64,000 nucleotides of DNA, taken from Obrimoposthia wandeli (lineage: Eukaryota). The notes beneath the pieces are model-generated. The model made no database searches. It was not told the origin of the DNA and worked only from the letters and a program-made list of their open reading frames with translations. Below, one piece after another: positions 33,388-55,290 of this stretch (its first letter is position 1; each line of letters opens with the position of its first letter). The stretch is taken from the NCBI GenBank assembly GCA_977020255.1, contig CDROCS010002657.1:248001-312000 (forward strand), read 5' to 3'. Position numbers and translations under genes: made by a program.

Positions 33388-33853
33388 ATGCAAAGTCATA
33401 ATACAAAGATATCGAGATCCTGGGCCGAAGCATCATTTTCTAAATATCAGCTTATGCACAGGTCCCAGAAAGCAGAAGAAAACGTTAAGGACTTTGTGAC
33501 TGCTCTACAAAATCTCGCCACAAACTGCAACTTCAAAACTACCACGGCAGAAGTACACCGAGACGCGTATATCCGGGACGCCTTCGTGTCAGGAATTAAA
33601 CTGCAGTCAACTCGGCAAAGACTTCTAGAAAACAAAGAATGGAGTCTAACTCAAGTAAACTCCCAAGCTCAATCTCTGGAAGCTGCCATGGAAATTTCAG
33701 AAGCTTATGTTAGAAGATCAACACATTTAGACGCGGCCCATAACCTCCCGCAATCAGAATAAATAGCAGAATTTCTTACGATAGCAGCAGTCCAAAAGTG
33801 AGGGAAATGCTACTTCTGCGGAAAAGAATATCATGTAAGAAATCTATGTCCAG
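33388..33853 (+). pseudogene. Gypsy gag fragment
   Basis: QKAEENVKDFVTALQNLATNCNF...IRDAFVSGI...RQRLLE, then KCYFCGKEYHVRNLCP. The knuckle pair continues as KNATCNKCMKTGHF at ~52952 on the far side of the BEL insertion. Confidence 0.85.
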
Positions 33854-34619
33854 TGTTTCGGAGCGGAGGATAGAGTATAAAAACATAAAACTTCATGTAG
33901 AGCCTTTATTGAAACATAAACTATAATTCATCTAAATCTTTCATTGATTTAATTTAAACTTTTAAAAATATCCTTACCATAACAACTTGACTTCGATACA
34001 TCAATCACTTACATTTACATTACTTTTTATCACCAAAGTTAACTTAAATTAACCTGTTACAACACATAAAATATTTACATGAAATTTTACATAAAAAGAT
34101 GACGTCTCCAGATCCATTACCGCCCATCATCGTCATCTCACTGCCTACTATTGAATTTATTTCTAAAAGTATTTTAATATATTTTTCTCTTTCTTCTTCA
34201 ACATTCTTCTTCCAATTTGATCAGACATAATCAATCTACGGCTGATATTCTTTTAACGTCCTCTAGTGGTGTTAATCTCTCATCATTATCGCGTGGACCC
34301 AATCACATACTAACTTTTTGATTCAGCATCTGACAGGTGATAACTCCAATGAGTTATATCCACCTTCTTCTGGGAGTTCGGAAAAGACCCAATGCTAATT
34401 TACACAGTAAGATGATTCTTCAGACCAGTTTATCACTTCTAATATTGCAATCTCACTCCAGCGTCCATCTCCTCGTCTCTAATTTCCCATCTGCTCCTAA
34501 TTCCCAGTTACCTCTCTCTCTTGCTTCTCTATTTGCACCTCACGACCAATAATCGATCAGTAACGCAGTGTGCGTGCCTATTTTGTCTCGGTGCTCCAAA
34601 GGCAAGTAATTCCTTACTT

Positions 34620-36232: not shown

Positions 36233-37060
36233 AGTAGGTAGATGTGACACTTCTGGAACAAAGCCCCCCCCTGAGGACAAGCTCAGGTCAAGTTGAGGAC
36301 AAAAAATTTTAAGGTCAAGTTGAGGTCACGGTGAGGTCAAGATGTAGGTCATGACCTCATGAGGTCATGACCCCCCCTATGCTTAGGAAAAATGTCTTTG
36401 TCCTGAAAGACACACATCAAGTAGGGGGATATTTTTTTTTGAGCATACCCCCCCCTTGAGCACAGTTTAAGGTCACGATGAGGACATGACCTCATGAGGT
36501 CAACTTAAGGTCACGGTGAGGACAAGATGTAGGTCATGACCTCATGAGGTCAAGTCAAGTTAAGGTCAATGTACTTTAAGGTCAACTTAAGGTCATGACG
36601 TCATGAGGACAACTTAAGGTCACGGTGAGGTCAAAAAGATTCTATTTTTAGTAACATACTTTAAATCTATATATATTTTTATCTAAAGGTGGTTTTAACA
36701 CCAATTTAACAAAATACATCTCGTGTGTGTGTTTTATAATTTATTTAAAATATCTACTTATAAAATAAAGTATTATATAATTTGATAATCATGTTTAAAC
36801 GTTCCTATATCTATCTAACAAAGACAGTCACGCATCTATATTGCAAATACTTGCATCTTTATGTAATCAATAGTAACATTTATTCTTATACATGTATATA
36901 TGTGTGTGAGTATCTAACAAAGACAGTCACCAATACCTACAAAGACAGTCACGTGTGTGTCTAACAAAGACAGTAATCAATACCTACAAAGACAGTCACG
37001 TGTGTCTAACAAAGACAATCATCAATACCTACAAAGACGTACTGCATCTATATTGCAAAA
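36233..37060 (+). repeat. Left TIR of the Polinton
   Basis: Matches the reverse complement of 51717-52422 at the tip and in the inner AT-rich part; the middle AGGTCA array differs. The inner limit is approximate. Confidence 0.85.
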
Positions 37061-37170
37061 ACCTGCAAATTTATGTAAATAATTTTTAAAATAAAGACAA
37101 GTATTTCTAACATATATATTCCTTAAAATCACAAAGGAGAATAAAAATATGTACAACACATATAAAAAGT

Positions 37171-40100
37171 TTATACAACCTCGTCCGGGTATAAAAAGTG
37201 ACCATAGGCGACTGAACGGTTTTTCTCCACCCACTTGCGCTTATCATCACTACTGCTTAAGGCAATTTTACTTAACCTTACAGTAAAAAGTTGATGATTT
37301 AGCGAGCTTATACGTTGTTGTTGTACACGCTCGCTAACGCCACTCTTATAGACAGCTAAGTAATTAGAGTGCCTAATACTCGTCTGTCGGAGACTAATAC
37401 CTTTCGCTCTCATCTGAGATTCACCTTCTGTAGTCTCTAGGCTATATGATTTTGGTCGTAGAAAAATCCCTTGCCTATAACTAAATAATCCCTTAATATC
37501 ATCTTTAAATTTTCCTATCGCTGTATTAAGCGTCGTATAAAGCGGATGGGTTTTTGGAAATTTCGAGGTATCCAACAGTCCATCAGCAATCATAGCAGGT
37601 AACAGTGATTCTTGAACATTGACATTATTACACTTCAAGAAAAATCTATCAGTGTCACCCGCTATAATTCTAATGTCGCAGTTAAATTGAACTCGATATT
37701 TCTCCAACTGCTCATATTGTAGCTCATACATACGAAGTTTGCTTAAATCTAATACCTCCTGGCCCATGTAACTAGGACGATCCAAAACAATATTTTCCTT
37801 ATCCAGTAAAACTGCAATAAGGTCCGTATCGATTTCGATTGTCCTACGAAAGTGGGCTTTACTGCAATAGGTAACCAGCTTCTGTGGAGTATTACAAATC
37901 CGGAGGTTAATTCTTTTCATCAGATTCTCAATGAGTTTTCCAAATAAAGAATTCACCTTCAGTTTGTAGTAATCCCGCTCGAAATCTGTTGTAACCGCAG
38001 CTCTTTTGAGAGAATTATCCTCAATATATTTTGAAAAAACATTAGTTTGTTCAAACTGTATTGCTCTATATACAAAATCTACCTTAGCACCAAGTCTAAC
38101 GTACATTTGTAGCAATCTAGAATGCACAACATAATGTTTCTTAGGGTAATGTGTTAATAACAATTTTTCAGTCTTACACCCTGGTGGACTCTGTTTAATT
38201 GGAGCAAGGGGAAGATCGTCGAATTTATTATGAAGCTCGTTGGGAATGGATAAATCTATTTCCAATAAATGAGCGAAGCGACTACAGGATAAATCTACTG
38301 ATTTTAAGCTGGAAATAATATTCCCCAACTCTAACCGATCAGTCACCCAGGAAAAGTTACCACAAGGTAAAAACTGGGACATAGCCCACCCGTACAAATT
38401 ATTTACATCAATGTACAAATGTTCTGTACCATTGATGGCGTCCACTATGGTGTTCATTAACAAATGTCATACCCCCGCATATCCCGGGCCGGAAGAGTCG
38501 GTACATTTCTGGATCCTGTATTAGCTCGACTCGCACAACGGGAGCAGAAGAAGAAGCCGGACGAAGCAGGGATTTGAAAGCACTCGCGAAATTCAGTCCT
38601 GGAAATAAAAACATTTATTAAAATCATTGTGAAAATCATTGTGAAAATCATTACTTTGAAAATCATCTATCTAACAAAGACAGTCACGCATCTATATTGC
38701 AAATACTTGCATCTTTATGCAATCAATAGTAACAAGTACTACATTTATTCTTATACATGTATATATATATATGTGTTAGTGTCTAAAATTAGAAAAAAAT
38801 AGAAAAATACAAACCAGGGATGGAGAAGAAATTGAGTGGCTCCAATCCATCGTCAGTAATGGCCTTGGTCCGGAATGCTGTAAACACGTATGCTAGAAGG
38901 TATACGTCTATCTTCATATAGACCAGCATATAGTCCCAGAGCGATGAGCAGCCGCTCTGAGTCCAGACCATCTTCGCCATTTCATATTGTGCTGGCTTGA
39001 TCTTCTCATCCCACTTTGGCGGTAAGCTGGTGATTGCGCGAAGAGCAGTCTCTGATACTGCCATATTGTATGGGAAGATTCCCTTGGCGCTCACCAGATG
39101 TTGCGGGAAGACCGAATGTGTAAGAGGAGTCACACCCAGGTTTTCCACAAGTTTTTCAAGTCTGCTGTTCAAAAATTGAAGGGAATCGATGAAACGTATA
39201 CAGACTCCTCCAATATACACCATCATAGCCTGGAATTTCTCTGTTGATTGAGGTATAACAGATACATTCCAGTCAGGAAACTTGCACGGTGCGTGCTTCA
39301 ATATGTGGTGCATATGTAACCCATAAGATTGTGAAAAATGACGGGAAAAGACCGATTGATTCTCCTTGATAAGTTGCATTTCGTATGCGCTGCTCCCAGG
39401 TATTCGCCAGTCATGTGATCGTGATCTCGAACTTTGTTTGTGAGTTTCTTCTTACACAGGTAACAGATTCTTGCTGCATTGAAACTCGATACCTGTTCCT
39501 GTGTGAGTTGTCGCATCACCTCGATCGCATGCTTCTTGTACCATGGGAGAACAACCTCTTTCGCCAAGTCCTCTAATTTCTGCAAAAAGTATACCACACA
39601 AGATTCCCCGGTAAAGACCGAGTAATCATGTGTATACCCTCTCGTGGCTGCAACGGGAGACATGAGCATACCGGCCGAGATTGGAAGCTGAATCTGATGG
39701 TGGATTCCATGCGGCGGTAGCACAGCCTCAAAGTCCGCGTAAACAGCAAAAGGTGGAGAAATCGTTTTCAAAAAGTCCTTAAACTCAATATGCTTCTCTG
39801 TAGGCATTGAATAAAGTGTTGTATGATCTAAATTCATCCTACAGAGCGGAACGTGTTTGGCGTAACTTATCGGACTACGGAATCCATGAAGACATTTATG
39901 GCACCAAGTACACCGAATGCAATTAGATACACCTTTGTTCCTATAATTAAGCAGCCTATTGAGTTTAGGAATACCGATATAATGAAAATTATCATTATTT
40001 TCTAAAAGGAGAAGATTGATTGGTTTAGCGTCCGGGTTTGTGGTCCTGTAAATCACATCCACATAGGGATTTTTGAAGATATCCCCATCTGTTTGCACAT

Positions 40101-40791
40101 TAGAGAACCTATTGAATGTAAATACGTTGATTGAGAGAGATGGATTCTTTCTCTCAAATCGCGGTATATTACATAGACGCATCGGCATCTCATTCTCATC
40201 AAAAACTAACTGACTCAAAAAGGCATCATATTGATTAACCCGATGAGGATTAGAGCGAAATACTTCACGGAAAAGTACAGATAAGATACTGTAAAGGAAG
40301 CAAAAAGCGTTTGAGTTCTGCACATTGATAACGCAATGTGAGAGTGCTAACTCAGATGGAGTAGGTATATAACTACTTCCCTGGAGATAGTTCATTGTTG
40401 TTTTAGTCACAACAAACGAAATCTCCAGGAAGCGGTTCACTACCCAATTACTACTACTTTGAGAATAATTCTCAATCTTCTTGTTGATCCCATCTACTCC
40501 CGCATCTATAAACCCCTCATCTATGGGGAGCCCTCTATTGGAAAAATTCCAAGCGCGTGTTTCTCCAATATTGGAAAATTCAACACGCACCCCGAATTGA
40601 ACCTTGCAAGTTGCAAACATGCTGACTGTGTCCCTTAAGCTAGTCAAAAGTGATACAGGAACTTGTAAATCGATGAGATTGTCATTAGAAACATCTAATG
40701 ACAATGTCTCAATCGTGCCCCGAAGACTAGTCTTACGCTTAACAGCATCAACCCTGAAAAACTTCGCAACATAGCTACCTGAAGTGGGCAT
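37171..40791 (-). pseudogene. polB: Protein-primed family B DNA polymerase with one intron (38599-38814) and two 1-nt frameshifts (~39316, ~38450)
   Basis: Exo motifs YADFE, FHNLMGY(D), YMKID; polymerase motifs YIDVNNLYG, KLKVNSLFGK, GDTDR (usually DTDS), PKSY, AKGI. Also an endonuclease VII-like CYLC...RDHDH...HTKCN segment and an N-terminal OTU-like Cys (FCFLY)/His (FHY) region. Confidence 0.95.
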
Positions 40792-40800
40792 AACACTTCT

Positions 40801-41242
40801 CTAACGGGTAGATGCTGGTAACGGCGCGGGGATCATACCAACTGGAGGAGGCATAACTGAAACCATTGGTGCAGCAGATGATGGTGAAGCAACTGGGGTA
40901 GTAACAGCAGCAGCAATTAAGGTAGCAATTGACGAAGCAGCAACAACTGGACCAGCAACCCGAGAAATAGTAGCAGATCTATTCTGAAAGATGGCCTTCT
41001 TGCCACGTTGCTGGAAATGACGAAGATGGACACGATGACGCGCCACAAACTCCGGCCAATCAATCTCCTCCGCGGAGAGACATACTGGACATACGTAGAA
41101 TTGTTGTCCTTTGAACTTCTGTCCAAAGTAGCTCTTCATTTTTCCGTCACATTCCTTGTGACTCTCCTCGAAGCATTCTTTGTTCATATTGCAATTCTAG
41201 AAAGAAATAAATTAGCTGAAAAAATAACAATAAACTTACCAT
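40801..41242 (-). CDS. Small Cys/His-rich Polinton protein with Pro/Ala/Ser-rich tail; probable 43-nt intron after the ATG
   Basis: ATG(41242-40)|GTAAGT...TTTCTAG|AAT TGC AAT ATG joins in frame with ORF 40801..41187; CPVC motif; TATATAAGC upstream. Confidence 0.65.
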
Positions 41243-41373
41243 TTTCAATTTCGTTTATAATAGGGGATTATTTGTTGATTGATGCTTGCTTATATACTAT
41301 TTTCGAGCTAGTATTAAGCCAATCAGATTCATACATTATTTAAACCAACCAGATTAATTTAAAACAGAATAGT

Positions 41374-41883
41374 TTACTGACAGATGTGAGTAGTTGAATT
41401 TTCATTAATATTTAAATAATCCAAACTAGCTGCAAAGCATTTCTTGTATGCACAATGCTCGCCATGTTTAATATATGGACAATTGATATTTGATGGATTT
41501 AATTGTTTTAATGTTTTCGAGTAATTTATCACTCTAAATTCAGGAAAATATTTATTGATTGTCTTTATTTTAGCTCCATTATTTTCATCCAAAACATAGA
41601 AAATTGATTTGGATACATCACAACAACGTTTTATTTCCTCAGTTATTTCTTGTATCTTGAAATAACTATTACCATCAACTAGTTTTAATCGATGGTAATG
41701 CTTAATGAGATATCTATTTATTTTTCTTGATTTTCTATTCATCATGTCCCATATGGGTTGCTTTTTAAAAACATAATGTTTGGGATAGAAGATTGCATCC
41801 ACATCCATTATACATAGTTCTTTTATTACAAATTCAGTATTATTATCAATAAAAGCTTCAAAATCAATAAAATAAACAGACAT
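41374..41883 (-). CDS. DEDD/DnaQ-like nuclease-fold protein with C-terminal Cys/His cluster
   Basis: N-terminal YFIDFEAF (D-x-E) followed by IKEL, and C-terminal CPYIKHGEHCAYKKC. Intact ORF of 169 aa. The fold call is motif-based only. Confidence 0.55.
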   Translation of the reverse strand: MSVYFIDFEAFIDNNTEFVIKELCIMDVDAIFYPKHYVFKKQPIWDMMNRKSRKINRYLIKHYHRLKLVDGNSYFKIQEITEEIKRCCDVSKSIFYVLDENNGAKIKTINKYFPEFRVINYSKTLKQLNPSNINCPYIKHGEHCAYKKCFAASLDYLNINENSTTHICQ

Positions 41884-41920
41884 TTTTTATAGCAATAATT
41901 TTGTTTGATATTGTTTATAT

Positions 41921-42298
41921 CTATTGTTTATGCTTTAACCAAAGCAGACATAGTTGTCCACATGAGTGCGTTAAAACATTTTGATAATGTTTCTTACTAA
42001 AATGTACTTTCTTTCCAGAATCAAGTACTGTAGATACTAATTTAGAAGGGTAATATATCCCAAAGGGGTCAAAAACAAAGATTTCATTTTCTTTAACATG
42101 TATTGCAATCCAATGTTCACCACGCAAATTAGATGAATGTGTATTGATTACATATCCACCTAGTCGAGTCAAAGAGGGGATGTGATCAAGACTGTAGACT
42201 CCATTGAAATGCGAACCGAGTAGTTTTCTTCCGCTTTTTGTTATCTCGTCCGAACTAGAATATATATTAATTAATAAATTCAAACTGATTTACTTCAT
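41921..42298 (-). pseudogene. Adenain/Ulp1-like maturation cysteine protease
   Basis: GEHWIA (His), FDPFG (Asp), YQ...SCGQLC (Gln/Cys). The in-frame ATG at 42298 is followed by TAA at codon 3. Confidence 0.9.
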
Positions 42299-42327
42299 TT
42301 ATATCTTCTTTATTGTTTTCATTCTGT

Positions 42328-43537
42328 TTATACTAGTACTGTTCCTCCCTTGGTAATTTGAACCTCAGAATCGAATACTCCATAGATTATAATATTAGTA
42401 GGATGTTCAAGTGCTTTTGAAAACTTGATTTCTACTTTCAAATTTCCCTGTTTAGGGATTTGAGCTTGATTAATATCGAAATCAGGAGAGAGAACAAATG
42501 TGAACAGTGTATACTTGTCCTTGAAATCAGTCATTGAAATTCAAATATTAGCATCCTTATCCAAATGACCAAGATTTCTAATTAAAGATTGCACATAAGA
42601 AAACACATAATCATCGTTTTCAAAGTCATTCGTATAAGATTCTTGATAATCAATATTTCGTGCAAGTTTAATTGAACTCACATTCATGTGTCCAAATTGA
42701 GAAACCTCATTTTTAGACTCACCTCCATAGGTAGAAGTGTTTTGGAAAGCAATTAAAACAAAGTTTGGAAGTTGCATATCACCAAAAATCTGATCCCGTA
42801 GGGATAGCGTTAGAAACAAGATTAGTTTTTCTAATAGGATAACATGCATTTTGCTTCTCCAACCCTATTCGATGTGCAACGAGTACAGATGGTTCCACCT
42901 TTACTCTTCGAACCAGCAGTTTTGCTTCCGTAATCTCAATTGCGGTTTTAATAGTATCGTCGTAAACAACACTAAAACCTACTGGATTTCTCTTCATTCG
43001 AATATGTGCACTTACACCGAGTAAAAGATACTTTGGTTGCTTAAAGAAATCCAACTGGAGACTCCCACAAAGTGACAATACTTTAGACTTTGCAATCGAA
43101 GCAGTTCTTCTTTTTTCATCATTGTCAAACCCAATTGCATCAAGATTAATCAATTTCGTATCATTACCGTAATTCAGTAATGTTTCAATCATTGCTTTAT
43201 GAGTGTAGCTAGTATTATTTCCCTCAACTTTCACATTATTGAGACTGAGAATCACATCCTTGAAAAGAGTATGCAACATGTAATTAGCTGATTTGATATC
43301 CATACCATCATCCAAATCACCTCCACCTTCCTTTGTAACTTTCAATTTAACGAGAAATAAACTATCATTCAAATCAAGATATTGAGTATTGGATCAATTA
43401 ATATTGAATTCTAAATCCGGAGAAGATGTCCCGTTAACCGTATTTGTCGGACATATTTCTTCAAAACTAGCACTATCAACCACAACCTGAGGTATAGGTT
43501 TATCAAATATACACAATTCAGTTTTAGCACAACTCAT
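42328..43537 (-). pseudogene. Major capsid protein (double jelly-roll)
   Basis: MSCAKTELCIFDKP...LEFNIN*SNTQYLDL...FKDVILSLN...AMIETLL...AKLLVRRV...FTFVLSPD...IYG. In-frame TGA at ~43395 and ~42541, and a frameshift at ~42790. Confidence 0.9.
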
Positions 43538-43899
43538 TACTTAAAAATTGTTCCACCTAGTTTCAAACGTTTGTTTATACCCGATGCTTTAGATGTTTTC
43601 TTACGTTTATAACCACTTCCCTTTTGAGTTTTCTTTTTCAAAAATTCAGCTAGACTTGGTGAAATTTCATTCACCTGATCCAAGGCTGCATCCTTTAGTG
43701 TGGGAAGAAATTTCTCATCACTTGACAAGTATTTTGATCCAACATTAGCAATAAATTTCCCGAGTCGCTTGAGTAGTGGGAAAGCAAAGCGACCTAAAAC
43801 CTTCATCCATCCTGATCCATACTGTTTTCCCGCAAAATAAGGCAAATCACCTCCTTGCATCGGTTTACTATACGCATCGATTATACTTGAATCAATCAT
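43537..43899 (-). CDS. Small basic virion protein with amphipathic helix (between minor and major capsid genes)
   Basis: QGG...FAGKQYGSGWMKVLGRFAFPLLKRLGKFIANVG...QKGSG; position and Gly motifs as seen in Polinton structural modules. Confidence 0.7.
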   Translation of the reverse strand: MIDSSIIDAYSKPMQGGDLPYFAGKQYGSGWMKVLGRFAFPLLKRLGKFIANVGSKYLSSDEKFLPTLKDAALDQVNEISPSLAEFLKKKTQKGSGYKRKKTSKASGINKRLKLGGTIFK

Positions 43900-44918
43900 A
43901 ATTTACGAAAATGAACCGTTAAACTTGTTTTAGCTCCGTAAGCAAATGTAATTAATCTTCCAGAATCATTACGTATATTAACTTAAATATTGTTTATAGA
44001 AGAAGAACTCACGGGAATATACTTTGGATTTTCAATTGGAATATGTATAACATCACCATACTTGTGCTTTTCCTGTTGAACCCAAATTGCTTTAATTAAG
44101 AGAAGTTTCCTTCCTCCTACGAATATTGGTTCGGTAATACTCGTGTAGATATAAATCTGATTATATGCATTAGTCATTTTAGGAAAAATCTTTGCTTTGA
44201 AAACCTCATTTTTATTTTCAAATTCATTTTCATCAAAACCGATAATTGAGGCTAATTATTTATCCATGATGATTTTATCAATATTGGATTTCAATTTGAA
44301 ATGAATCAATTTATTAACTAGTTTAAAGTTTTCAAATACATTTGGTAACACTGTTTTAAAATGTTTACACATACTTTTGCTATCGGCAAAAAGAAAATCA
44401 TTGGGAACTGAATATATTTTCCTCTCGCGTTTAACGAATCTGTTTTTTATCTTGAATGTAATTATCGGATACTTGACATGATTATCCATAATTTGTGAAA
44501 CTGCATGATTTCCTTTTTCAACTTTAGACGGAAATCCATATTGTTCTGCAACAATTTCATCATTAAAAATTATTTCAAAATTATCCCCTTTTTCCATAAT
44601 TTGAATTTGATTCTCTTTATTTAAATAGATTGTGAAATCATCGCCTGACTTAATACGAGCCAAATCCATTTGACCCTTATCAAATAGTGAAGTCACATCA
44701 GTTACTTTATCAGCTTCACGTTGGGTAATATATTCAATCTCAGTTTCACTTTGAATAGATAGAGGAGAGTAATTGAAAGAAAATTCCGTAAGAGCAGCTT
44801 CCCAAGCACCAGGTAAATTGATTGAGCTTTGATAATCAATACTAAAACTATTAGCAGTATTATTCGGCTGATTTAATGGCGAACCATTACTTGGTAATAC
44901 AACATACGTTGAGTTCAT
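43896..44918 (-). pseudogene. Minor capsid (penton-like) protein
   Basis: YVVLPSN...NNTANSF...INLPGAWEAALTEF...IYIYTSITEP...YIPV...I*VNIRNDSGRLITF...LTVHFRK. In-frame TAA at ~44256 and ~43983. Confidence 0.85.
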
Positions 44919-45886
44919 TCTATTTGAGAAGCTAATATCCAACTAGGTTCAGTATATCCATGCCACTTAACATGATATTGTTTATGCTTTCCTCTACCTT
45001 TTGTCTCTAAAATTTCTTGGATTCTATATACATTCGGTTTCTCAGACAAGACTTGTAATTCCTCATGATAAAATTTACCCGTGATTACATTATTGGTTTC
45101 ATCCTCAATGAAATACATTACCGGCACACGTTTATTATCAATTTTAGTTATACGAAATACTTCATCGCTCCAATTCTCTTTGAAATTCTTTATAAAAGGA
45201 GTAGTACTAATTTGAGAAATACGTACATAATCACCAACTTTATACTTGGGTTTCCGTGCAACTTGACTTTGGTTACGGCGTTGCCAAATTTCCATAGCAT
45301 TCTCATCTGTAACATCAACGGGTCTCTTTCGGTCTAATGATGAGTGTTCACTATGATTGTATGCATGTATTATTTGAGGTAAAACAGTAACCCAGGACTT
45401 ATTTCCCTGCTTTGTGAAATACTTTTTCAAACGATCTCTCAATGTTCGATTAAAACGTTCAACTAAAGCGGCTTTATATTGGGAAAATACTGAGTAATGA
45501 TTAATATTATGTTTTTTCAATAGTGTTTCAACATGTTTATTATAAAACTCCTTTCCACTATCCGTTTGGAAATTTCTTGGTTTTATTTCTTTAATCAAAA
45601 GCTTCATTGCGGCTAAAACATAGGTACCAGACTTAGACTTTAATGGAATAGCTCGCGCGAATCTGCTAAAGACATCAACACAAGTTAAAATATATCAATA
45701 TCCGTTGTTAATACTAGCATACGGAATCATTTCCATCAAATCTGCTTGCCATAAATCATTCGGGCCGCTCGTTTTGTATGATCTCGTTGGGAACCGACGT
45801 CTCATTGGTTTGTTTAAGCTGTAAGCTAATTTTGAAACCCCTTTGTAACCAACGGGGTGACTTGGATCGAACCATATTTTCTCCAT
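44915..45886 (-). pseudogene. Retroviral-like DDE integrase with C-terminal chromodomain
   Basis: WQADL, QTDSGKEF, VERFNRTL, and YHVKWHGY...SW (chromodomain). One in-frame TGA at ~45695. Confidence 0.95.
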
Positions 45887-45983
45887 TGCAGTAAGACGAT
45901 TTGATTTTTAAATTATATTTAGGAATAGATGGAAGTGATCCCATATATAAATTCATATTATTGATTCGAATTTATGTTTATAA

Positions 45984-46406
45984 TCATCGGTTTATTAGTC
46001 TACTAGCAAGTGCACCAACTATTGAGCTAATAATTGGTACGAGAAATCCTAAAAATCCACCACTTTGCTTATAAAGCAACTTACGTTTACCGATTCGTGT
46101 TTTGGCGTGAAACAAAGCAAGTAGAGGTTTCTTATGCCGATTCAGGTTAGCCTTGACAATTATTTTACCAGAAACTATTTTCTGTATCATATTAAGTAAA
46201 TCATCAATTACAAAAGTAGGGAATGATTTAAGAATAGCTGGGCGGCGAATAGCAGGTGCACGCATGAGAAAATTGAAATAGGCAATACTCCTAGATTTCT
46301 TAACAACAGTTCTTTTCGATTTTTGAGCAACCATTTTCCTTGCACTTAAAACTGATTTAATCAATTTTTTAACTTCGGGTTTAACAGTTTCCTTTTTAAA
46401 ATTCAT
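45984..46406 (-). CDS. Basic core/virion protein
   Basis: Lys/Arg-rich, ending KRKLLYKQSGGFLGFLVPIISSIVG, a typical Polinton small structural protein tail. Confidence 0.7.
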   Translation of the reverse strand: MNFKKETVKPEVKKLIKSVLSARKMVAQKSKRTVVKKSRSIAYFNFLMRAPAIRRPAILKSFPTFVIDDLLNMIQKIVSGKIIVKANLNRHKKPLLALFHAKTRIGKRKLLYKQSGGFLGFLVPIISSIVGALASRLINR

Positions 46407-47054
46407 CTTCTCAAAACTGGTTTCTTTGTTTGTTTATAGACGGTTATTCCCGATGGATTGAATACATCAGTTCTAACTCTAAAGTCATCGGGACAATCTT
46501 GAGTAAAAATCAATAAAAATGTATCCATGAGGAATAGTAGTTGCATCTTGAAATGAATCAATTAAAAACTTTCTATTATTCGGGTAAGCTTGTCTTGAAA
46601 CAAAATCAACAATCGTCTGATCACGTGGATTCTTGAAGAGAACAAGATAATGTACATTTAAATTACGAGTTCTATGGTTCCCTCCTTGATGAAATAGATT
46701 TTGTGTGATGAAAATAACAGTTACTTCCCGATGTCGTGCTATTTTAGTGAATAAATTATTGAAATCACTCTCTTTATTTGCTTCTTGATATAAATCATCA
46801 ATAACAATAACATCATGTCGTTGTAATCGCTCAGACCAATTATCATCGAATCCATTAATGACTTTTATATTTTTGATTTTCTTAAACTCTTTACTGGTTA
46901 AACCAGCTTCTCCATCTCCTCCCTGCTTCCAATATATTTTATTAAACTTAAAGGTAAAGTATTTATTATTTTGTAGTAATTTACATACAAAATGTGTTTT
47001 CCCACTACCACTAGGACCTACAATCTGAAAAACTGAATTATTTTCTAAGTTCAT
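46403..47054 (-). pseudogene. FtsK/HerA-type packaging ATPase
   Basis: GPSGSGKT, VIVIDDL, ARH...ITQNLF, LFKNPRD. An extra T in a T-run at ~46505 shifts the frame; the corrected tail DFTQDCPDDFRVRTDVF...LRR* ends at 46403. Confidence 0.95.
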
Positions 47055-47097
47055 ATTAAAAATATTAGATTATCGGAATAATGTTTATAAGACAAAA

Positions 47098-47382
47098 CTA
47101 TTTAAAATATTTTATTACGAAACATCCAGCAACAAACAATAAAAAACTCTTCTTGTAGAAAAAGCTCCTTTTCTCTTCTTTCTTTGCACATTCTTTCTTC
47201 TGATTGTATCCATGAATGAGAAGATTGACTGCCTTGTCATGCACCATTCTTCTTACGTGCTCCTCCAGGGGTAGATTTGAGACATCAATGAGTTGCAGGA
47301 CATCTGGTTCTATGACATTCTTCGAGATGAAGCTCTTCACCGCCTTGTCAACATCTTGCTTGAAATAGTTTGGAGTAGACAT
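47098..47382 (-). CDS. Orphan ~94-aa helical protein with C-terminal hydrophobic tail flanked by lysines
   Basis: The ATG at 47382 sits 30 nt after TATATAAGC; the protein ends FFYKKSFLLFVAGCFVIKYFK. Confidence 0.65.
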   Translation of the reverse strand: MSTPNYFKQDVDKAVKSFISKNVIEPDVLQLIDVSNLPLEEHVRRMVHDKAVNLLIHGYNQKKECAKKEEKRSFFYKKSFLLFVAGCFVIKYFK

Positions 47383-47443
47383 AATGATGATGAAGAAGTA
47401 AAAAGTAATCTGCTTATATACTATACATCTGAAATCTGATTGG

Positions 47444-47580
47444 TTAATAAAGACTAATAAAGACACTGACTAATAAAAACACTGACTAATAAAGACACAA
47501 AGACACTGACTAATAAAGACACTGATTAATAAAAACACTGATTAATAAATACACTGATTAAAGATAAAGACGAATAAAAT
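47444..47580. repeat. ~16-bp tandem repeat (GACACTGACTAATAAA), ~7-8 degenerate copies
   Basis: Directly visible between the 47098 ORF promoter and the phosphatase stop codon. Confidence 0.85.
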
Positions 47581-48306
47581 TTACACATGATAACGATTAA
47601 AAATACGTATTTGATGAAGCATAGCTTCATTAGGAGCAGCAATAGTCCGTTTAGCTTTAACAAGATTCGAAGCAGCAGTAACACCAATCGAATGAGATAA
47701 AAATGCAATAACAATGCAAGCAGCATGTAAACTACCATAATGACTACATACTAAAATCTTACCACCATTTTCGATAGTTTCTTTAATTATATTATTAGTC
47801 TGTTTATAATACTTCATTATTGTTTCTCCTAATTTTGAGTTTACAAAGACAGAAGTATATTTTAATTTCTTATAAGATATTTTATCCAGTATAGATGTAT
47901 TGATTACATGAGTGAAATTGGAGTTCAAAAGATTAGTTTCATCAAACCCATCTCGATAATTATCAATATATAATTGATTTACTAAAATCTCACTCATCAC
48001 GGTTTTGTTTAACTTTTCTACATTATGTTGAGTAAATCTAGCACTAAACAAGCTATCAAAAAGATGGGTCATGTGGTTCATTTCCATACTCGAAGCATGA
48101 GCTATTATGGGTTCCATAAAAGCCAAAGCATTTAAAAAATCTATCCGTCTCTTATCTTCAATAATTGGATCTATAATAATTTCTTCTTCTATCGTCACTT
48201 CATCAATAGTTTCTTCTCTTCTTATAACTGTTGTTGTTGTTGCTGGTGATGATGTTGTTGCTGGCGATGATGTTGCGGCTTCTGGTGCTGAATTGATTTT
48301 CTCCAT
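47581..48306 (-). CDS. Dual-specificity phosphatase-fold protein, catalytically dead
   Basis: MSEILVNQLYI...THVIN...GGKILV-CSHYGSLHA-ACIVIAFL...VKAKR...PN...HQ. The HCxxGxxRS loop is replaced. Confidence 0.85.
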   Translation of the reverse strand: MEKINSAPEAATSSPATTSSPATTTTVIRREETIDEVTIEEEIIIDPIIEDKRRIDFLNALAFMEPIIAHASSMEMNHMTHLFDSLFSARFTQHNVEKLNKTVMSEILVNQLYIDNYRDGFDETNLLNSNFTHVINTSILDKISYKKLKYTSVFVNSKLGETIMKYYKQTNNIIKETIENGGKILVCSHYGSLHAACIVIAFLSHSIGVTAASNLVKAKRTIAAPNEAMLHQIRIFNRYHV

Positions 48307-48626
48307 TTTATCAATTCCCAGTCAATTTAGTCTTATATATATATTAAACGAGGTTTAATTTCATAGGAGCATCAGTTTCATCATATGATTTGATTGGAGT
48401 ATTATTCAACCTTTCCATTGTACTTAACAACTCATGTAAATGTATTTGATGACGTAACCTAAAGAGTTAAATAAACTACATATAAATATTACTCATGATT
48501 ATTTTTCCTAATTAAAGCATTGAGAATAACTGAAGCAAGATCTTTTAATGCATCCTGAACCTCTTTACATTCAATAATTTCATTCATTTTATGATAAAGC
48601 AAATCAAATATTGTTTATAACCCATG

Positions 48627-48845
48627 AAAAATCTATTTTTAGAGCACATTACAACTATTTGCAACATTACAACGTTTGCAACTATTTGCAAGTAATGACA
48701 TGTGATGTCTCTAAGAGAAATCTATTTTTAGACCACATTACAACTATTTGCAACATTACAACGTTTGCAACTATTTGCAAGTAATGACATGTGATGTCTT
48801 TGTCTCTAAGAGAAATCTATTTTTAGACCACATTACGACTATTTG
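48627..48845. repeat. ~90-bp internal repeat, 2.3 tandem copies; a further copy at 50467-50537
   Basis: AAATCTATTTTTAGACCACATTACAACTATTTGCAAC...GCAAGTAATGACATGTGATGTCT. Confidence 0.9.
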
Positions 48846-49363
48846 GTTTAGGAAATAAATAACACAAGTGTGGAGATCTATATTAAATAAAATACATTCA
48901 ATCAGATACTCATAGTTTAAAGATTTAAAACCAAGTATCATAATCTTCCCGCTAGCAAAAATGTTCACGCATAGGGGATTGTATTTGATGTATCGAAGTC
49001 CCGGGAAGATTTCTGGCTCGTAAACAGCTTCCGATCCCATACTCTTGCTCATCTTGTTTAGGTTTATTGATGTTTCTAGCTTGCTGCTGAGACTGATTGA
49101 TTGCATTCTTTCGATTTTTATATCAAAAGGAAGACTGCTTTCATCCCGCACTGTTTTGCAACCCATTATTCTGCATGTACCTAAATTATAATTATATATA
49201 AATGTAAAAATAAATTACCAGATTTGAAAATGATAATAGTGTAACCTTCACACTTGAGTCGATACTGATGAGGCTTCGAAGTCCGAAATGGTAAGTGTTG
49301 AATGTTACTTACAACCATTCCCTTGTAATTAATATTCACTAATTTGATATTGTGAAGTAGCAT
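48771..49363 (-). CDS. TATA-binding-protein-like (two TBP repeats), two exons 49363-49219 and 49180-48771
   Basis: Splicing the 38-nt GT-AG intron gives IIFKSG|TCRIMGCK, parallel to the repeat-2 segment NIFASGKIMILGFK. YEPEIFPGLRY matches TBP YEPELFPGLIY. Confidence 0.88.
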
Positions 49364-49426
49364 TTCTGATTATTATAAACTGATTTCTTCTATTTATACT
49401 ATTTGAACATCTATTTTTAGATTTGT

Positions 49427-50423
49427 TTAATTGCCTATGCTATGAAATCTAATATTTCTTACTCGTCTAATGATAATTGTCTTGCAATATGGACATGTAA
49501 TAAAACGATCTGAACATTTAATACACGTGTTTAAGTGACCACATGGTAAAAATGCCACGGAAATCGCATCGCTCATGCAAACAACACATTCGGGATTTGG
49601 TAAGAGGTACTCAAGATAATTTATCCGATGTGTTGGTTCAGATTTTATTTCTAAAGACCTTAAATCCGTTATAAACTCATATATAGAATCATATTTGTTA
49701 CCGAATGTTTTAAACCTATTAACTAAAACGGCTTTGATTCTATCATGACTGTAATCACGTTTCAGCAAAACTATTTGACGAGTTTCCATCTGAGCATCAA
49801 TGTCATCATTACTAATATGATATTCAACAATACATCCGTTCTTGATTCCCATACTAGATGCTTTACAATCTCGAGTATGAAAGATAAGACATAGTATCAA
49901 TAAGGTCAAGTCGGGGTACTGCTTTCCGACAGAAACAACATCGATAAGAATCATTCCAAATATATACATGATCGAAAATCGATAATGTAGGTATTTCAAT
50001 ATCATTAGAATAATTATTGCGTGCAATAACAACTTTATCCATTGGAGTTGTATCAAAATCAATTTGGGTGGTGCTGGAATCAATTATTGGTACGTTTGAA
50101 ACATTCATTTTCAAAACAAACGGACATCTTGGGAAAAAGAGCTGATGCTGTTTCATTGGTTTCAGATAGTACTCCCATCCCGATATTCCTCCCTGACAGT
50201 AAATACACTTTACATTATCTTTCGAATCATCGTGCTTGTAAAATCCTGCTTTTGCTAAAGCTTTCTTATCGGCTAAACCAGTAAACTTTGTTTGTAACGA
50301 TTCTAATCTTCTTTCTTCATATATCATATTTTCATTTATTCTTGAAATATTATCAAAACGCCGTCGTCTAATGGTGAGTTCTCCGTTTTCTGAAACATAA
50401 TGTGCAATAAATTTAGTAGTCAT
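49427..50423 (-). pseudogene. iap: Inhibitor of apoptosis (BIR, UBA-like, RING), one frameshift at ~49885
   Basis: RLES...LAKAGFY...DNVKCIYCQGGISGWE...PMKQHQLFFPRCPFV (BIR); CVVCM...FLPCGHLNTCIKC...CPYC (RING). Confidence 0.92.
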
Positions 50424-50554
50424 AACAAAATTGAATGATGAAATTGTCTAGCTTATATAGTAAGTGAAAATCTATTTTTAGACCACATTACAACTATTTG
50501 CAACTATTTGCAAGTAATGACATGTGATGTCTTTGTCTTAGTATAAACAATATT

Positions 50555-50782
50555 TTGATAATGATTTTATTGAAAATGGTTAATCAAAATAATCAAAATA
50601 ATGAAAGTAGAGCTAGTACATATAAAGGTTCCGGTAGTAATTTATATTCTAATATGAATTATAATAGAAATAATCAGAGAGAAAATATTAATCCATCAAG
50701 TCAAACAATAACAAGTCCTACGCGCTTAACCGAAGAACGTGAGCCCTTTAAGGATATGACTAATACTAGACGATTTTCATAA
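50555..50782 (+). CDS. Small Asn-rich orphan ORF
   Basis: Divergent from iap, with a TATAAA just upstream; low complexity, no recognisable motif. Confidence 0.35.
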   Translation: MIMILLKMVNQNNQNNESRASTYKGSGSNLYSNMNYNRNNQRENINPSSQTITSPTRLTEEREPFKDMTNTRRFS

Positions 50783-50895
50783 ACAAGAATGTTAACCAAT
50801 TGAGACTAATCGATTTTCATAAACAAGAATATCGACTAATTAGAATCGACCTTTAGAGGATAAACAATTGAATATTTCAATTTATAATTGTCAAT

Positions 50896-51276
50896 ATGAA
50901 TTTCGAAAAGCTATATCAACCTATGCATACATATTATGGATATGAGATGCACTTTTTGAAGAAAGCTCATAACTATAATTTTATTTTCCCCGTCAACATT
51001 GAGCCGCTTAAATTTGATTTTGAAATATCAAATTTGACTTCTGTGGATAAAGAGAGAATCAATATTCAATTTGGAATCAACTATGCGCTTCAGGAAAACA
51101 AATTCGTAATCAAAGGATCAACTGCCACTTTCAAGCATGAGAATGGAACAATATACGAAGCACCTCCTCCTAAGCTAGAATGGATTATCTCAATCAGAAT
51201 TCAAGGATGCAAGATCGGGTCCAGTGGATTGGAAACTCCGATATGGAAAATAATTGATGCTGTTAGAGTTGACTAA
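50896..51276 (+). CDS. Polinton accessory protein, predicted beta-rich (possibly OB-fold ssDNA-binding)
   Basis: Intact 126-aa ORF with alternating hydrophobic pattern, ending ISIRIQGCKIG...PIWKIIDA. The function is a guess. Confidence 0.55.
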   Translation: MNFEKLYQPMHTYYGYEMHFLKKAHNYNFIFPVNIEPLKFDFEISNLTSVDKERINIQFGINYALQENKFVIKGSTATFKHENGTIYEAPPPKLEWIISIRIQGCKIGSSGLETPIWKIIDAVRVD

Positions 51277-51340
51277 TAAATTTTTGTGTCTTTATTTGTA
51301 TTATTTTATATATATAAACAATAGTGATACTTTAATATTT

Positions 51341-51712
51341 ATTATGAAAATGACTAAAAAACCTACTAAATCATTAAAGTCGAAAAAGGTTAAAAAGACT
51401 ATGAGTAAAAAGACTATGAGTAAAAAGAAAATCATGGAGGGTTTGGGTATTCATATGATGGCAGCAAATCTTTTAGGTAGATGGTTTGGCGGAGTTGATA
51501 AAAAAGCTATAAAGCACAAAAAGAATGTGGATTACATGAGAGGTATACAAAATCAGAAACGAGTGCAAATAGGAGATGGTATACAAAAAGGGGATGGTAT
51601 GCTTGATATTTTTGTAAAATTAGATAAACTTACAAAAGCATTTGAAAAGGATCCTAGTGCCTATCTTGGTCCAAAACTAAACTTTTTAGCAAACCGACCA
51701 AAAACTTTGTAA
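51341..51712 (+). CDS. Lys-rich basic protein with QxGxG motifs
   Basis: MKMTKKPTKSLKSKKVKK...QIGDGIQKGDG. The start is inferred downstream of a TATATAAA at ~51310; the ORF track starts at 51254. Confidence 0.6.
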   Translation: MMKMTKKPTKSLKSKKVKKTMSKKTMSKKKIMEGLGIHMMAANLLGRWFGGVDKKAIKHKKNVDYMRGIQNQKRVQIGDGIQKGDGMLDIFVKLDKLTKAFEKDPSAYLGPKLNFLANRPKTL

Positions 51713-51716
51713 TTAC

Positions 51717-52422
51717 ATTGCAATATAGATGCAGTACGTCTTTGTTAGACACTCACACATATATATATATATATACATGTATAAGAATAAATGTTACTAT
51801 TAATTACATAAAAATGCAAGTATTTGCAATGTAGATGCGTGACTGTCTTTGTTAGATAGATATAAGAACGTCTAAACATGATTATCAAATTATATAATAC
51901 TTTATTTTATAAGTAGATAGTTTAATTTAGTTTAAATATATTTTTCAAATTATATAATACTTTATTTTATAAGTAGATAATTTAATTTAAATTATAAAAC
52001 ACACACACACGAGATGTCTTTTGGTTAATTGATCTTTTTGACCTCGCCGTGACCTTAAAGTACATTGTCCTCATGACGTCATGACCTTAAGTTGACCTTA
52101 AAGTACATTGACCTTAACTTGATCTTAACTTGCCTTGACCTCATGACCTACATCTTGTCCTCATCGTGACCTCAAGTTGTCCTCATGACTTTAAATAAAA
52201 AATCATGTGTACTCGGGAGAAATTTGACCTACATCTGTCATAAAAAATTTGAGTTCAAAAATTTTCGCGCTAATTTCAAAAATTTTGACCTATATTTCAA
52301 ATTTTTCGCGGAAATTTCAAAATTTGACCTAAATTTTTTGTCCTCATCAAAAAATTTGACCTAGATTTTTGACTTGTCCTCAGGGGGTGGGCTTTGTTCC
52401 AGAAGTGCCACATCTACCTACT
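51717..52422 (-). repeat. Right TIR of the Polinton
   Basis: Inverted counterpart of 36233-37060, with an extra internal duplication (about 51880-51990) and a different TGACCT sub-array. Confidence 0.85.
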
Positions 52423-52948
52423 GGCCTATGATTCCCAATCATATCCCCACCACTGATTGCGCACTTCCTCTCTTGGACTTCAATGCTCGACCTCCATATT
52501 AACTCTTCAACTCTTTCATATCTCCTAGAAATGTTGTATCCACCTTTTCCTGGGGTCACGATCCTTGCGTTTGGATGCACACTGTCCCTGCCCTCAACCG
52601 ACACTGCGAAGCATCCCTGCGTCAGACGTCGTCTATAGGCCTCGGCCAATACCGGCTGAGGTAGTTTCTCGGATCGTGCCTGCCATCCTTTAAAATCCTC
52701 CATATATTCTCCCTCACTTCGTTCCTTAAAACAAACCTGCGATTTTATATTACCAAGTACTTTATCATTACTTCAAGTTGAAAATTGTGGGCACATATGA
52801 GACAACGGCAAGGGGCGGGGAATAAAAACAGTGATCAAGGCCTAACCTCCAGCTGCGACTTGTCCATTACAAAGGGTTCCAGCTGTCCATTTTGTCCCCT
52901 ATATCCAACTTCTGATCCTCTCGCACGACCAATTTGATCTCGTCTTCA

Positions 52949-55290
52949 TCCAAAAATGCAACGTGCAACAAATGCATGAAAACCGGACACTTCTTCAGCG
53001 CCTATCTGTCGAGAAAGAAAGATACAATCAACGTAGCGACATATCTGGCAAATGCAGTCATCAAATCCCCAACAGGACTCCAAAAAGCAATAGGACAAAT
53101 AAAGATCCTCGACGGGTACCACGATGCACTAATCAACATAGGAAGCGAACTCAGTTTCATCGACGGAAACATAGTTAAGTTCATCAAATTATCAAGCCAA
53201 ATATGCCAATATCTCTGGCATCCAACAACAATAAAACAATCCCTACAACGTTCTGTTTCATGGATTTTGAACTAGACAATGTGCCGTATAGAAATCAACG
53301 ATTGAACGTACTGGATAACCTATGTACCCCAGTAATCCTTGGCCAAGACTTTATGAAAAAAGATTTAATCAATAACCTTCAAATTTGACGGATAGATTCA
53401 ACCGCTGACATTAGCATCCATCTTACCAATACATTTTGAACCGCCACGAATCTTCGAGAACATGAGAGACGACGTATTTTCCATCGCAACCAAATCAAGA
53501 ACCTACTGCTATTCAGACCTGAACTTCATAAAACTGGAAGTCGAATAATTATTAAAGGGTGGTATCATCGAGAAATCATCGTCCTCATGGAGAACTCAAG
53601 TACTCGTCACAAACAGGAACATGAAGAAGCGTCTAATTATCGACTACTCACAGACGATCAACAAATTCAGCATTTTAGACGCGTACCCATTACCTAACAT
53701 GGACGAACTAGTGCGAGAAATATCAAAAAACGAATACTTTAGCAAACTGGACCTGCGATCAGCCTACCACCAGGTACCTCTGCACCCAAACGACAAAATA
53801 TTCATGGCTTTCCAAGCCTCCGGTAACTTATATCAGTTCAGACGCCTACCATTTGGAGTTACTAATGCCGTCAGCGCTTTCCAACGGACTATGAACAACA
53901 TTATCGACGATAACAATCTACGCTTATTTAGATGATATAATCATCGTCGGAACATCACTAGAAGATCAAGACGAAAACGTCAATAAATTCCTTGAAGTAG
54001 TTAAAAAAATCCAAATCTCGCTCAACATGAATAAATGATTGCTTCAAAAAATGTCCATAAATGTTCTTGGATATCAAATCGAAGAGAATTCAATGCGCCC
54101 TGATCCAGAAAGGTTAAAACCAATTACTAATTACCCATTACCAACCAATACAAAGGAATTGCAGAGACTACGTGGACTCCTGAGCTATTACGCCAAATGG
54201 ATACCATCCTTTTCAGACAAAATCCAACCTCTTCTGAAAGCCACATTTCCTCTGCCCATGTCAGCAAAAACTGCACTCTTTCAATTGAAAAAGGAAATTT
54301 CATCATACACACTATCTCAATCAAACTCAATCTCCCAATTGAAATTCAAACGGATGCTCCAAAAACTGCCTTATCAGGAGTCATGCAGCAAGAACCTATT
54401 GCATTCGTTTCCAGAACCCTGAACTCGAGCAAAGAAAGATTATCTTCAATCGAGAAAGAAGCTATGGCGATCGTCGAAAGTGTGCGAAAATGGAGATCAA
54501 TATTGATCACGAACCACTTTTCAATCAAAACTGACCAAAGGCGCTCTCGTTTATCTTCAATCAAAAAAGAAATGGAAAAACTAAAAATGACAAAATTCTT
54601 CGATAAAGAATTGAGTTGTCCTTATATTCCTACAACGTAACACACATCCCAGGCGAACTCAATCTAGCTACAAACGCAATGTCCAGATGCAACACGATCA
54701 AATCCAAAACGGTTCTTAAACTCCATCAAGCGTTGGGCCATCCAGGAATTACGAGGCTCTGGCATTTCATCAAAAGCAAAAACCTCCCATTGTCTATAAA
54801 AGAAGTTAAAGACGTTTGCGAAAATTGCAAAACATGCACAATTCTCAAACCACAATAGTACCGACCCGAGATGTCACAGCTAATAAAATTGATGCGGCCC
54901 TTTGAAAGATTGAGTATCGACTTCAAAGGTCCGCTACCGCAATCCGGCCCTTACTGATACCTCCTAGTGATGATAGACAAATATTCCAGATTCCAGTTAG
55001 CCTACCACTGCAAAAACATGGAAGCACACACAGTAAAAACGTGCTTCCTCGATCTCCACATTCGGGTGTCCTTCGTCAATTCACACCGATCGAGGTACCC
55101 AATTTATGAATCAAGAAGTCAGGGAATTCTTAACGAAGCACAACGTCGCCCAAACCCGAACAACACCATATCATCCATCAGGAAATGGTCAAGTAGAGCG
55201 AATAATGGGACACTCTAGCAAACTATATCTTTAACTCTACACAACAGAAACCTAACCCCATCTTCATGGAAAGAGGTTTTGGAATGAAGA
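52949..55290 (+). pseudogene. Gypsy pol (protease, RT, RNase H, integrase), fragmented
   Basis: ALINIGS (protease site with D>N), YPLPNMDEL, FSKLDLRSAYHQ, LPFGVTNA, YLDD, IEKEAMAIV, H-x3-GH...CENC, IDFKGPLP, PYHPSGNG. Many stops and frameshifts. Confidence 0.9.

Follow-up and report, generated by a model that had tools for sequence, protein, structure and literature searches.

Genes of the right arm and their conservation

The window analysed here is a stretch of 64,000 nucleotides of Obrimoposthia wandeli DNA (assembly GCA_977020255.1, contig CDROCS010002657.1, positions 248,001 to 312,000 of the forward strand), and all coordinates count from its first letter. It contains a copy of a Polinton/Maverick element, here assigned to family A, whose right arm encodes a shortened TATA-binding protein (mini-TBP), a non-catalytic dual-specificity phosphatase (pseudo-DUSP) and an inhibitor of apoptosis protein (IAP). 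An earlier note, made from the letters alone, had described this arm as a single cassette for host control. The element is classed as a Polinton because it encodes a protein-primed DNA polymerase B (PolB; PF03175, E 3e-9 at 37171-38457), a retroviral-type integrase (rve, E 3.4e-14 on an intact sibling open reading frame (ORF), 98% identical), an A32-like ATPase (Pox_A32, E 2.5e-6) and an adenain-like protease (Peptidase_C5, E 0.003, below the family cut-off). The window copy is decayed, with interruptions in the PolB, integrase, ATPase and predicted capsid ORFs, which are intact in a sibling copy. The element and its right-arm genes are as follows.

36233..52422: Polinton/Maverick copy of family A, 16.2 kb, with AGTAG...CTACT ends and decayed core genes
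46485..47054, minus strand: A32-like packaging ATPase, shortened in the window copy, with TATAAACA 35 nt upstream
47098..47382, minus strand: 94-aa ORF whose short hydrophobic tail is flanked by basic residues, with TATATAAG 38 nt upstream
47581..48306, minus strand: pseudo-DUSP, a Ser/Thr/Pro-rich variable N-terminus followed by a DSPc domain, with TATATAAG 33 nt upstream
48771..49180, minus strand: mini-TBP exon 2, in which homology ends near 48858
49181..49218, minus strand: predicted 38-nt GT-AG intron of the mini-TBP gene
49219..49363, minus strand: mini-TBP exon 1, outside the ORF of the earlier note, with TATAAATA 35 nt upstream
49427..49852, minus strand: C-terminal half of the IAP, a UBA-like segment and a cIAP/XIAP-type RING
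49863..50423, minus strand: N-terminal half of the IAP, a BIR and the remnant of a second BIR, with TATATAAG 36 nt upstream
50561..50782, plus strand: 73-aa low-complexity ORF with TATAAACA upstream
50896..51276, plus strand: 126-aa predicted OB-fold single-stranded DNA-binding protein (SSB) of T7 gp2.5/Enc34 type
51347..51712, plus strand: 121-aa basic ORF with Q-x-G-x-G repeats and TATAAACA 34 nt upstream

Between the ATPase and the right terminal inverted repeat (TIR), the 94-aa, DSPc, TBP, RING and BIR ORFs are thus followed by three ORFs on the plus strand, and Pfam recognises DSPc (E 7e-12), TBP (E 1e-11), RING (E 2.5e-12) and BIR (E 1e-15). These genes travel with the element, as had been claimed: imperfect TIRs of about 0.7-0.8 kb and a perfect 6-bp target site duplication (TSD; 36227-36232 and 52423-52428) enclose them, and the arm was present at 88-100% in 35 of 35 scored places (the best 35 of 6657 candidates), in one piece at 25 and in two pieces at 10. 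The high-copy family numbers at least 35 young copies. The right TIR end is visible in 15 of 20 fetched copies, with a different flank in each. A search with a divergent copy (best 40 scored) identified an older subfamily at 77-81% identity. Its 22 loci share one gene order (121-aa ORF, 126-aa ORF, 73-aa ORF, IAP, TBP, DUSP, 94-aa ORF, ATPase), and the search was built so that every locus has DUSP and the 94-aa ORF. An adjacent TBP is found in 17 of the 22 loci, and the IAP is cleanly deleted in six.

The ratio of nonsynonymous to synonymous change (dN/dS), counted per alignment column in a comparison of 19 young with 22 old copies, is 0.08 for the ATPase, 0.02 and 0.10 for mini-TBP exons 1 and 2, 0.13-0.27 for the pseudo-DUSP, 0.18 for the UBA-RING half and 0.27 for the BIR half of the IAP, 0.23 for the 94-aa ORF and 0.35 for the 126-aa ORF. 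The 73-aa ORF has a ratio of 0.70 on 12 changes only, and the 121-aa ORF, with 23 columns in the comparison, is not interpretable. Purifying selection is seen on six of the eight ORFs tested between the old and young subfamilies; changes private to single old copies have ratios of 0.4-1.4. The low ratios between subfamilies indicate that the right arm was under selection while the element spread. The right-arm genes were kept in two subfamilies at dN/dS 0.02-0.35, in line with the view of the earlier note that they belong to the element.

Mini-TBP and two predicted classes of promoter

The mini-TBP gene is likely spliced, judging from its alignments. Its identity as a TBP-like gene was correctly noted; the 131-aa ORF then taken for the whole gene is only the second of two exons. 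The exon 1 piece and the 131-aa ORF together align end to end with intronless 150-aa homologues. GT-AG inserts that differ in length and sequence occupy the same site in families A, B and D, and the intron is absent from families C and E and from the metagenome homologues. Where the splice sites could be mapped in old copies, 11 of 12 retain the donor and 9 of 13 the acceptor. Four sequencing runs aligned to the region cover genes and spacers evenly and show no splice joints, a pattern that is uninformative on expression.

Mini-TBP genes are not confined to family A. In a homologue query of the same genome (best 150 scored of 43,899 candidate places), ten other-family loci, hand-picked across classes, all place the gene among Polinton genes and eight place it beside the ATPase, with DUSP, IAP or the 94-aa ORF beside it in none. 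Eighty metagenome loci were kept, the 19 closest of which are of mini-TBP type: nine have Polinton core genes, two a DEDD/MAEL-like gene only, four the 126-aa ORF only, and four are short contigs with nothing else. DUSP, BIR and RING occur in none of these 19 loci, which are mostly short contigs. Forty-eight mini-TBP clusters were obtained at E<=1e-30 in a library of representatives. A scan of viral contigs gave five loci with canonical or NCLDV-like TBPs and Polinton core genes in none of them. The same genome also has two TBP genes side by side in inverted orientation, two TRF2-like genes without introns and one further TBP-like gene (L166-L171), and two Polinton-like metagenome contigs (L130, L123) carry more divergent TBPs.

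In a TBP tree of 42 rows, rooted at the midpoint only and built without seven rows (redundant or lacking a full usable domain) and one host exon, 13 of 14 Polinton-linked rows fall on one side of a 100/97 branch, apart from the host TBP/TRF2-like genes. The model of a homologue, P0008 (pLDDT 97), to which the mini-TBP pieces of the window align at 49-57%, has the full ten-strand saddle and lacks the long helix in repeat 1; it superposes on human TBP 164-337 with Z 14.3 and a root-mean-square deviation (rmsd) of 2.4 A over 148 residues. Five residues (E97, E99, F40, F101 and F117) are at least 90% conserved in 61 sequences, and mini-TBP keeps the acidic EPE stirrup and three of the four DNA-intercalating Phe. 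It is neither a canonical TBP nor TRF2: the long first-repeat helix is missing, the first Phe is replaced and the branch is separate. In canonical TBP the stirrup is the contact for TFIIB, the helix that is lost here is a binding site of TAF1, Brf1 and further regulators, and the 3' half of the TATA box is recognised by repeat 1.

The 126-aa ORF adjoins mini-TBP in several families and is likely a replication protein, as its model (pLDDT 88) suggests. The best fold matches are the Enc34 SSB (Z 7.0, rmsd 3.0, 101 residues aligned), DUF2815, African swine fever virus CP312R and T7 gp2.5 (Z 6.4), all with Z scores below the caution line of Z 8, and Foldseek gives viral matches at E 2e-5. Mini-TBP and the 126-aa ORF belong to the near-core gene set of a broad Polinton clade. 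The single non-core cassette of the earlier note is not supported, since both genes are found in other Polinton families without DUSP, IAP or the 94-aa ORF; the right arm comprises two layers, a conserved mini-TBP/SSB pair and lineage-specific cargo.

Two motifs precede the genes of the element.

41912..51320, each in the coding orientation of its own region: eleven TATAAACA sites, predicted late promoters, with 5' ends at 48619, 47808, 47089, 46438, 45982, 43998, 43579, 42332 and 41919 on the minus strand and at 50542 and 51313 on the plus strand
41289..50459, minus strand: four TATATAAG sites, predicted early promoters, with 5' ends at 50459, 48339, 47420 and 41296

TATAAACA is enriched in the element (11 sites against a mean of 2.0 and a maximum of 6 in 300 shuffles), and nine of the 11 sites lie no more than about 100 nt upstream of a start, a zone that takes in 5% of positions (p 1.5e-10, for a motif chosen after looking). 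They precede the ATPase, a pX-like core ORF, the integrase, a 120-aa ORF, the predicted major capsid protein (MCP), the protease, the DEDD/MAEL-like ORF and the 73-aa and 121-aa ORFs. The number of TATATAAG sites is not enriched (4 against a shuffle mean of 1.85); apart from those listed above for the IAP, DUSP and 94-aa ORF, the fourth lies at -109 of the orf128/PolB unit. The mini-TBP gene itself has an ordinary TATA box, TATAAATA.

The pattern recurs in other elements (four other families, a PolB-less derivative described below and metagenome contigs), where TATAAACA lies ahead of the predicted MCP in 13 of 14 rows and ahead of the ATPase in 14 of 18, and in none of 18 rows ahead of the TBP gene. 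Packaging and structural genes are preceded by TATAAACA in five families, and in the distant L088-L090 group the motif stands before the pX-like core ORF in three of three and before the MCP in L088. The 3' half of TATAAACA, where it departs from the TATA consensus, is the part that the degenerate repeat reads. The two promoter classes would fit an early/late cascade with mini-TBP as the late factor. The proposal that TBP is a host-control gene loses ground here, as the promoter pattern points to a TBP serving the late genes of the element itself.

Cargo probably shared with a giant retrotransposon

The phosphatase is a pseudo-enzyme, as had been proposed. Among 41 mapped copies the catalytic Cys column holds Gly in 39 and Asp in two, the Arg column His in 39 and Tyr in two, and the general-acid Asp column holds Asn, so that catalytic residues are gone in all 41; neither the HCxxGxxR loop nor the general-acid Asp of active DUSPs is present. 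STYX is among the PDB matches, and STYX-type pseudophosphatases combine the DUSP fold with Gly at the catalytic Cys in the same way. Unlike in STYX, the loop Arg and the general-acid Asp are missing from the Polinton protein as well, and the closest relative found for it is the active MKP-like domain of a gypsy retrotransposon, which makes independent inactivation likely. With the Polinton protein, this gypsy domain scores 62.9 bits and the best PDB chain 40.2; two full host domains score no more than 9.7, and the two host genes most similar to the gypsy copy score 24-33 bits per exon.

The IAP named in the earlier note has both BIR and RING domains, and its frame is broken near 49,880 into two ORFs in the window copy and in 20 of 20 fetched copies of the subfamily. 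BIR and RING lie in one chain in the PolB-less derivative (333 aa) and in family B, and about 50 of 150 listed BIR matches have a 341-codon frame; the three loci of this kind that were examined belong to the derivative. A splice joining the two halves was considered and is not needed, as natural single-ORF copies exist. In family B (PolB about 45% identical) the same IAP stands beside TBP, without DUSP. The IAP is collinear with the BIR-UBA-RING region of the gypsy, linkers included (32% over 382 columns), and scores 157 bits against it and 70 bits against the best PDB chain.

These gypsy domains came to light in a DSPc search of the same genome (top 150 of 14,212 candidates), in which the top 150 matches lie in long frames. 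The one examined fully is a 4633-aa polyprotein with CCHC, an in-frame mononegavirus-like fusion glycoprotein, protease, BIR, RING, reverse transcriptase (RT)-RNase H, integrase and an intact-loop DUSP; no BCL2 match was seen in the parts scanned. Such gypsies, with env, BIR-UBA-RING and intact-loop DUSP in one polyprotein, are very abundant (L062-L064, L044/L071, L034/L070). Burro, a giant gypsy, is reported to carry a DUSP (Grohme et al. 2018). The domain description of planarian Burro matches the 4633-aa polyprotein, and its available passages mention neither a DUSP nor sharing with Polintons (Arkhipova and Yushenova 2019, PMC6431247).

HCxxGxxR and a fuller second BIR are retained in the gypsy copy, which is also 58% identical over 59 aa to a host exon, features that make gypsy-to-Polinton the likelier direction of transfer. 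Both the IAP and the pseudo-DUSP are cargo of this lineage. Gypsy domains are the nearest relatives found by sequence similarity, and both genes were likely taken from a Burro-like giant gypsy of the same genome. Their nearest source is thus a giant retrotransposon and not the large DNA viruses named in the earlier note. Word-index protein searches gave no relatives for DUSP or the intact IAP, which is a limit of the tool because the PDB gives matches for both.

The 94-aa ORF, described earlier as a tail-anchored protein, has a hydrophobic tail conserved in six of six aligned ORFs. A transmembrane helix of the tail-anchor type spans about 16-20 residues; the tail has 11 hydrophobic residues (best 11-residue hydropathy 2.98, best 19-residue 1.25) and is short for a membrane anchor; a tail anchor is a weak possibility. 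There is no family match in Pfam or the PDB (best E 0.9). Descent from Bcl-2 was considered and is not supported, with no match in Pfam, the PDB or the gypsy polyprotein. The most likely, though weakly indicated, role is that of a small membrane-associated early effector.

A derivative of the element (three loci examined; L056-L058, L059-L061, L068-L069) lacks PolB and has intact structural genes and an intact IAP. Its cargo arm is doubled as a 4-kb inverted repeat around the protease-to-ATPase block, with arms 99.7-99.9% identical at the two loci measured. One locus has its own TIR and 6-bp TSD, and the junction is spanned at 98-100% by 40 of 40 scored matches (the best 40 of 811 candidates). 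Such a derivative must presumably borrow PolB in trans.

Interpretation and relation to known systems

In the scheme proposed here, host TBP would read the ordinary TATA boxes (TATATAAG, TATAAATA), and PolB, mini-TBP and the cargo would be expressed first. From what is known of their families, the IAP (BIR and predicted RING ligase) would keep the cell alive and the pseudo-DUSP would damp kinase signalling by binding without dephosphorylating; both plausibly act on the host. Spliced mini-TBP would then recognise TATAAACA and recruit host TFIIB and Pol II for transcription of the ATPase, integrase, protease and predicted capsid genes. This combined mechanism, with mini-TBP as the late-gene initiation factor of the element and the IAP and pseudo-DUSP derived from a Burro-like gypsy, is in our judgement moderately probable. 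Its observed basis is gene content, conservation, selection, motif placement, fold and the ranking of similarities.

Several observations weigh against it. The motif survey covers TBP-carrying Polintons only, and TATAAACA is missing before the ATPase in four of 18 rows and before most predicted minor-capsid rows. Two of the 11 sites are not near any start, and the 126-aa ORF is preceded by GATAAACA instead in 18 of 19 young copies. In family B it is TATAAACA that stands ahead of the IAP, so that cargo genes are not early in every family. The 410-aa and 348-aa ORFs recur across families and are assumed from size and position to be major and minor capsid proteins; they have zero matches in Pfam, NCBIfam, PHROGs and PDB sequences. 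As to the origin of the IAP, no host BIR-UBA-RING gene was found (PF21290 in none of four candidates), the RING pattern has two matches in the same genome, one gypsy and one Polinton and no host gene, and the top host BIR matches are presumably survivin-like and BRUCE-like; a separate capture of the IAP from a host gene is possible. A crystal structure exists of host TBP on a C(-25) TATA variant (PDB 1qn3), and TATAAACA is also compatible with the forkhead consensus, so that a host factor could read it.

The last two points open another explanation, in which host TBP or a forkhead protein reads TATAAACA and mini-TBP binds the AT-rich termini or helps replication with the SSB, its neighbour in several families. 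We find this unlikely: the spacing between TATAAACA and ATG is mostly 32-42 nt, equal to the 33-38 nt of the ordinary TATA boxes and a core-promoter position; a 5' T is preferred (11 TATAAACA against seven for the other three first bases together); and the TATAAACA pattern is absent from L130, whose TBP has the helix and lies on a separate branch, although this is one case only. Still less probable is that all the genes form one host-control module in which mini-TBP is a decoy or hijacker of host transcription, for example by soaking up TFIIB. A TFIIB-side acidic stirrup kept after loss of the first-repeat helices would suit a dominant-negative, TBP has an ordinary TATA box like the cargo genes, and the two families in which TBP and IAP stand side by side are about 45% identical. 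However, TBP occurs without cargo in all ten other-family loci and in the 19 close metagenome loci (mostly short contigs), genes of the element itself lie behind the matching non-canonical motif, and six of 22 old copies have a clean deletion of the IAP. That deletion, the frameshifted IAP of 20 of 20 young full-type copies and the lost catalytic residues of DUSP might instead mark the cargo as hitch-hiking, decaying DNA without function for the element. This is very improbable and, for the past, largely refuted: the DUSP, IAP halves and 94-aa ORF have dN/dS of 0.13-0.27 against 0.4-1.4 for private changes, the non-catalytic DUSP loop is maintained in both subfamilies, and the youngest derivative doubles the arm with the IAP intact.

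Taken together with mini-TBP as late factor, a wider picture can be offered only tentatively, and we would not bet on all its parts holding at once. A wide clade of animal Polintons would time its genes much as herpesviruses do, early and then late, by means of a 150-aa TBP and a TATAAACA box; in the host studied here the element would have gained spliceosomal introns and acquired from an enveloped giant retrotransposon both a phosphatase and a functional anti-apoptotic ligase, the phosphatase would have become a decoy, and a PolB-less, helper-dependent, arm-doubling form would now be the youngest spreading one. Mini-TBP and the two predicted promoter classes make the gene timing and virus-like behaviour of Polintons testable, and a natural TBP without first-repeat helices would show the minimum needed for recruitment of TFIIB and Pol II. 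If correct, the sharing of IAP and DUSP would be an unambiguous example of genes passing between mobile elements that are unrelated, one DNA virus-like and one RNA-based, in one genome, with shared cargo aimed at the survival of host stem cells. The Burro-like elements make it likely that the host is a triclad flatworm, and Polintons and Burro are both piRNA targets in planarians (PMC8532177, in the part available).

Other features of the element and its surroundings were also recorded. The Polinton is nested in a long terminal repeat (LTR) retrotransposon, with matching direct repeats at 33105 and 55391 (flanks 33105-36200 and 52423-55483), a gag-like ORF on the left and RT/RNase H-like ORFs on the right (labels by eye). 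The ATPase is 216 aa long in 14 of 20 fetched copies. An ORF at 41374-41883, presumed to be DEDD/MAEL-like, and a 128-aa Cys/His ORF upstream of PolB at 40801-41187 (the 'Oncoid' position) are conserved across families, and the 121-aa ORF is likely a virion core precursor, judging from its motif. The TIRs (36270-36640, 52030-52190) hold AGGTCA arrays, which we take to be nuclear-receptor half-sites, and one TGACGTCA, assumed to be a CRE; these are possible host inputs for activation. An 85-90-nt repeat with TTGCAA and ACATGT words, a possible shared stress-responsive enhancer, occurs in three copies upstream of the DUSP gene and once beside the IAP TATA box (48617-48845, 50448-50532). A candidate 216-nt GT-AG intron in PolB (38599-38814, minus strand) contains a copy of a TIR repeat and is also found in a sibling copy; a gap of this type is absent from families B and C. 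A candidate 39-nt intron directly after the protease start codon (42255-42293, minus strand) puts the ATG 34 nt behind TATAAACA.

Vertebrate Mavericks, in the available part of their description (Barreat and Katzourakis 2021, PMC8097293), resemble family A in size, 6-bp TSD, AGT-type termini and accessory regions beside the core modules. They are reported there to be intronless, whereas family A has three predicted GT-AG introns (TBP, PolB and protease); introner insertions are known in dinoflagellate elements (PMC11957031, as far as available). Adintoviruses and this element have PolB, rve integrase, A32 ATPase, adenain, a pX-like protein and TIRs in common, and IAP and Bcl2 homologues have been reported from them (Starrett et al. 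2021, PMC8502044), where the labels 'SSDBP' and MAEL appear in Fig. S2 and 'TBP' in the legend of Fig. 5. In the accessible text of that paper, Fig. S1 and Table S1 aside, there is no shortened TBP family, promoter motif, DUSP, introns or retrotransposon source. The words TBP and TATA are absent from the accessible parts of PMC10748475, PMC11161782, PMC11131425, 10.64898/2026.06.19.733378 and 10.64898/2026.10.13.758929, and 'TATAAAC' was not found in the Polinton literature among the matches listed. The literature covered, which excludes Repbase and subscription journals, yielded no Polinton mini-TBP family, motif, Polinton DUSP or gypsy-shared cargo. The combination of genes, of which the earlier note knew no description, is new only in part: the IAP and one 'TBP' label had been published for adintovirus-like elements, and the rest was not found in the literature covered.

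No further initiation factor besides mini-TBP was seen in the element. The closest functional parallel is with the TATT-binding proteins of beta- and gamma-herpesviruses (Epstein-Barr virus BcRF1 and Kaposi's sarcoma-associated herpesvirus ORF24; PMC4893493), which in the portions of that source available are viral TBP-like proteins reading a variant TATA box at late genes with host Pol II. The herpesvirus factors described there are large, multi-domain members of a six-member viral complex, whereas the Polinton protein is predicted to be a stand-alone saddle of 150 aa in a 16-kb element, and the parallel is one of analogy, not membership.

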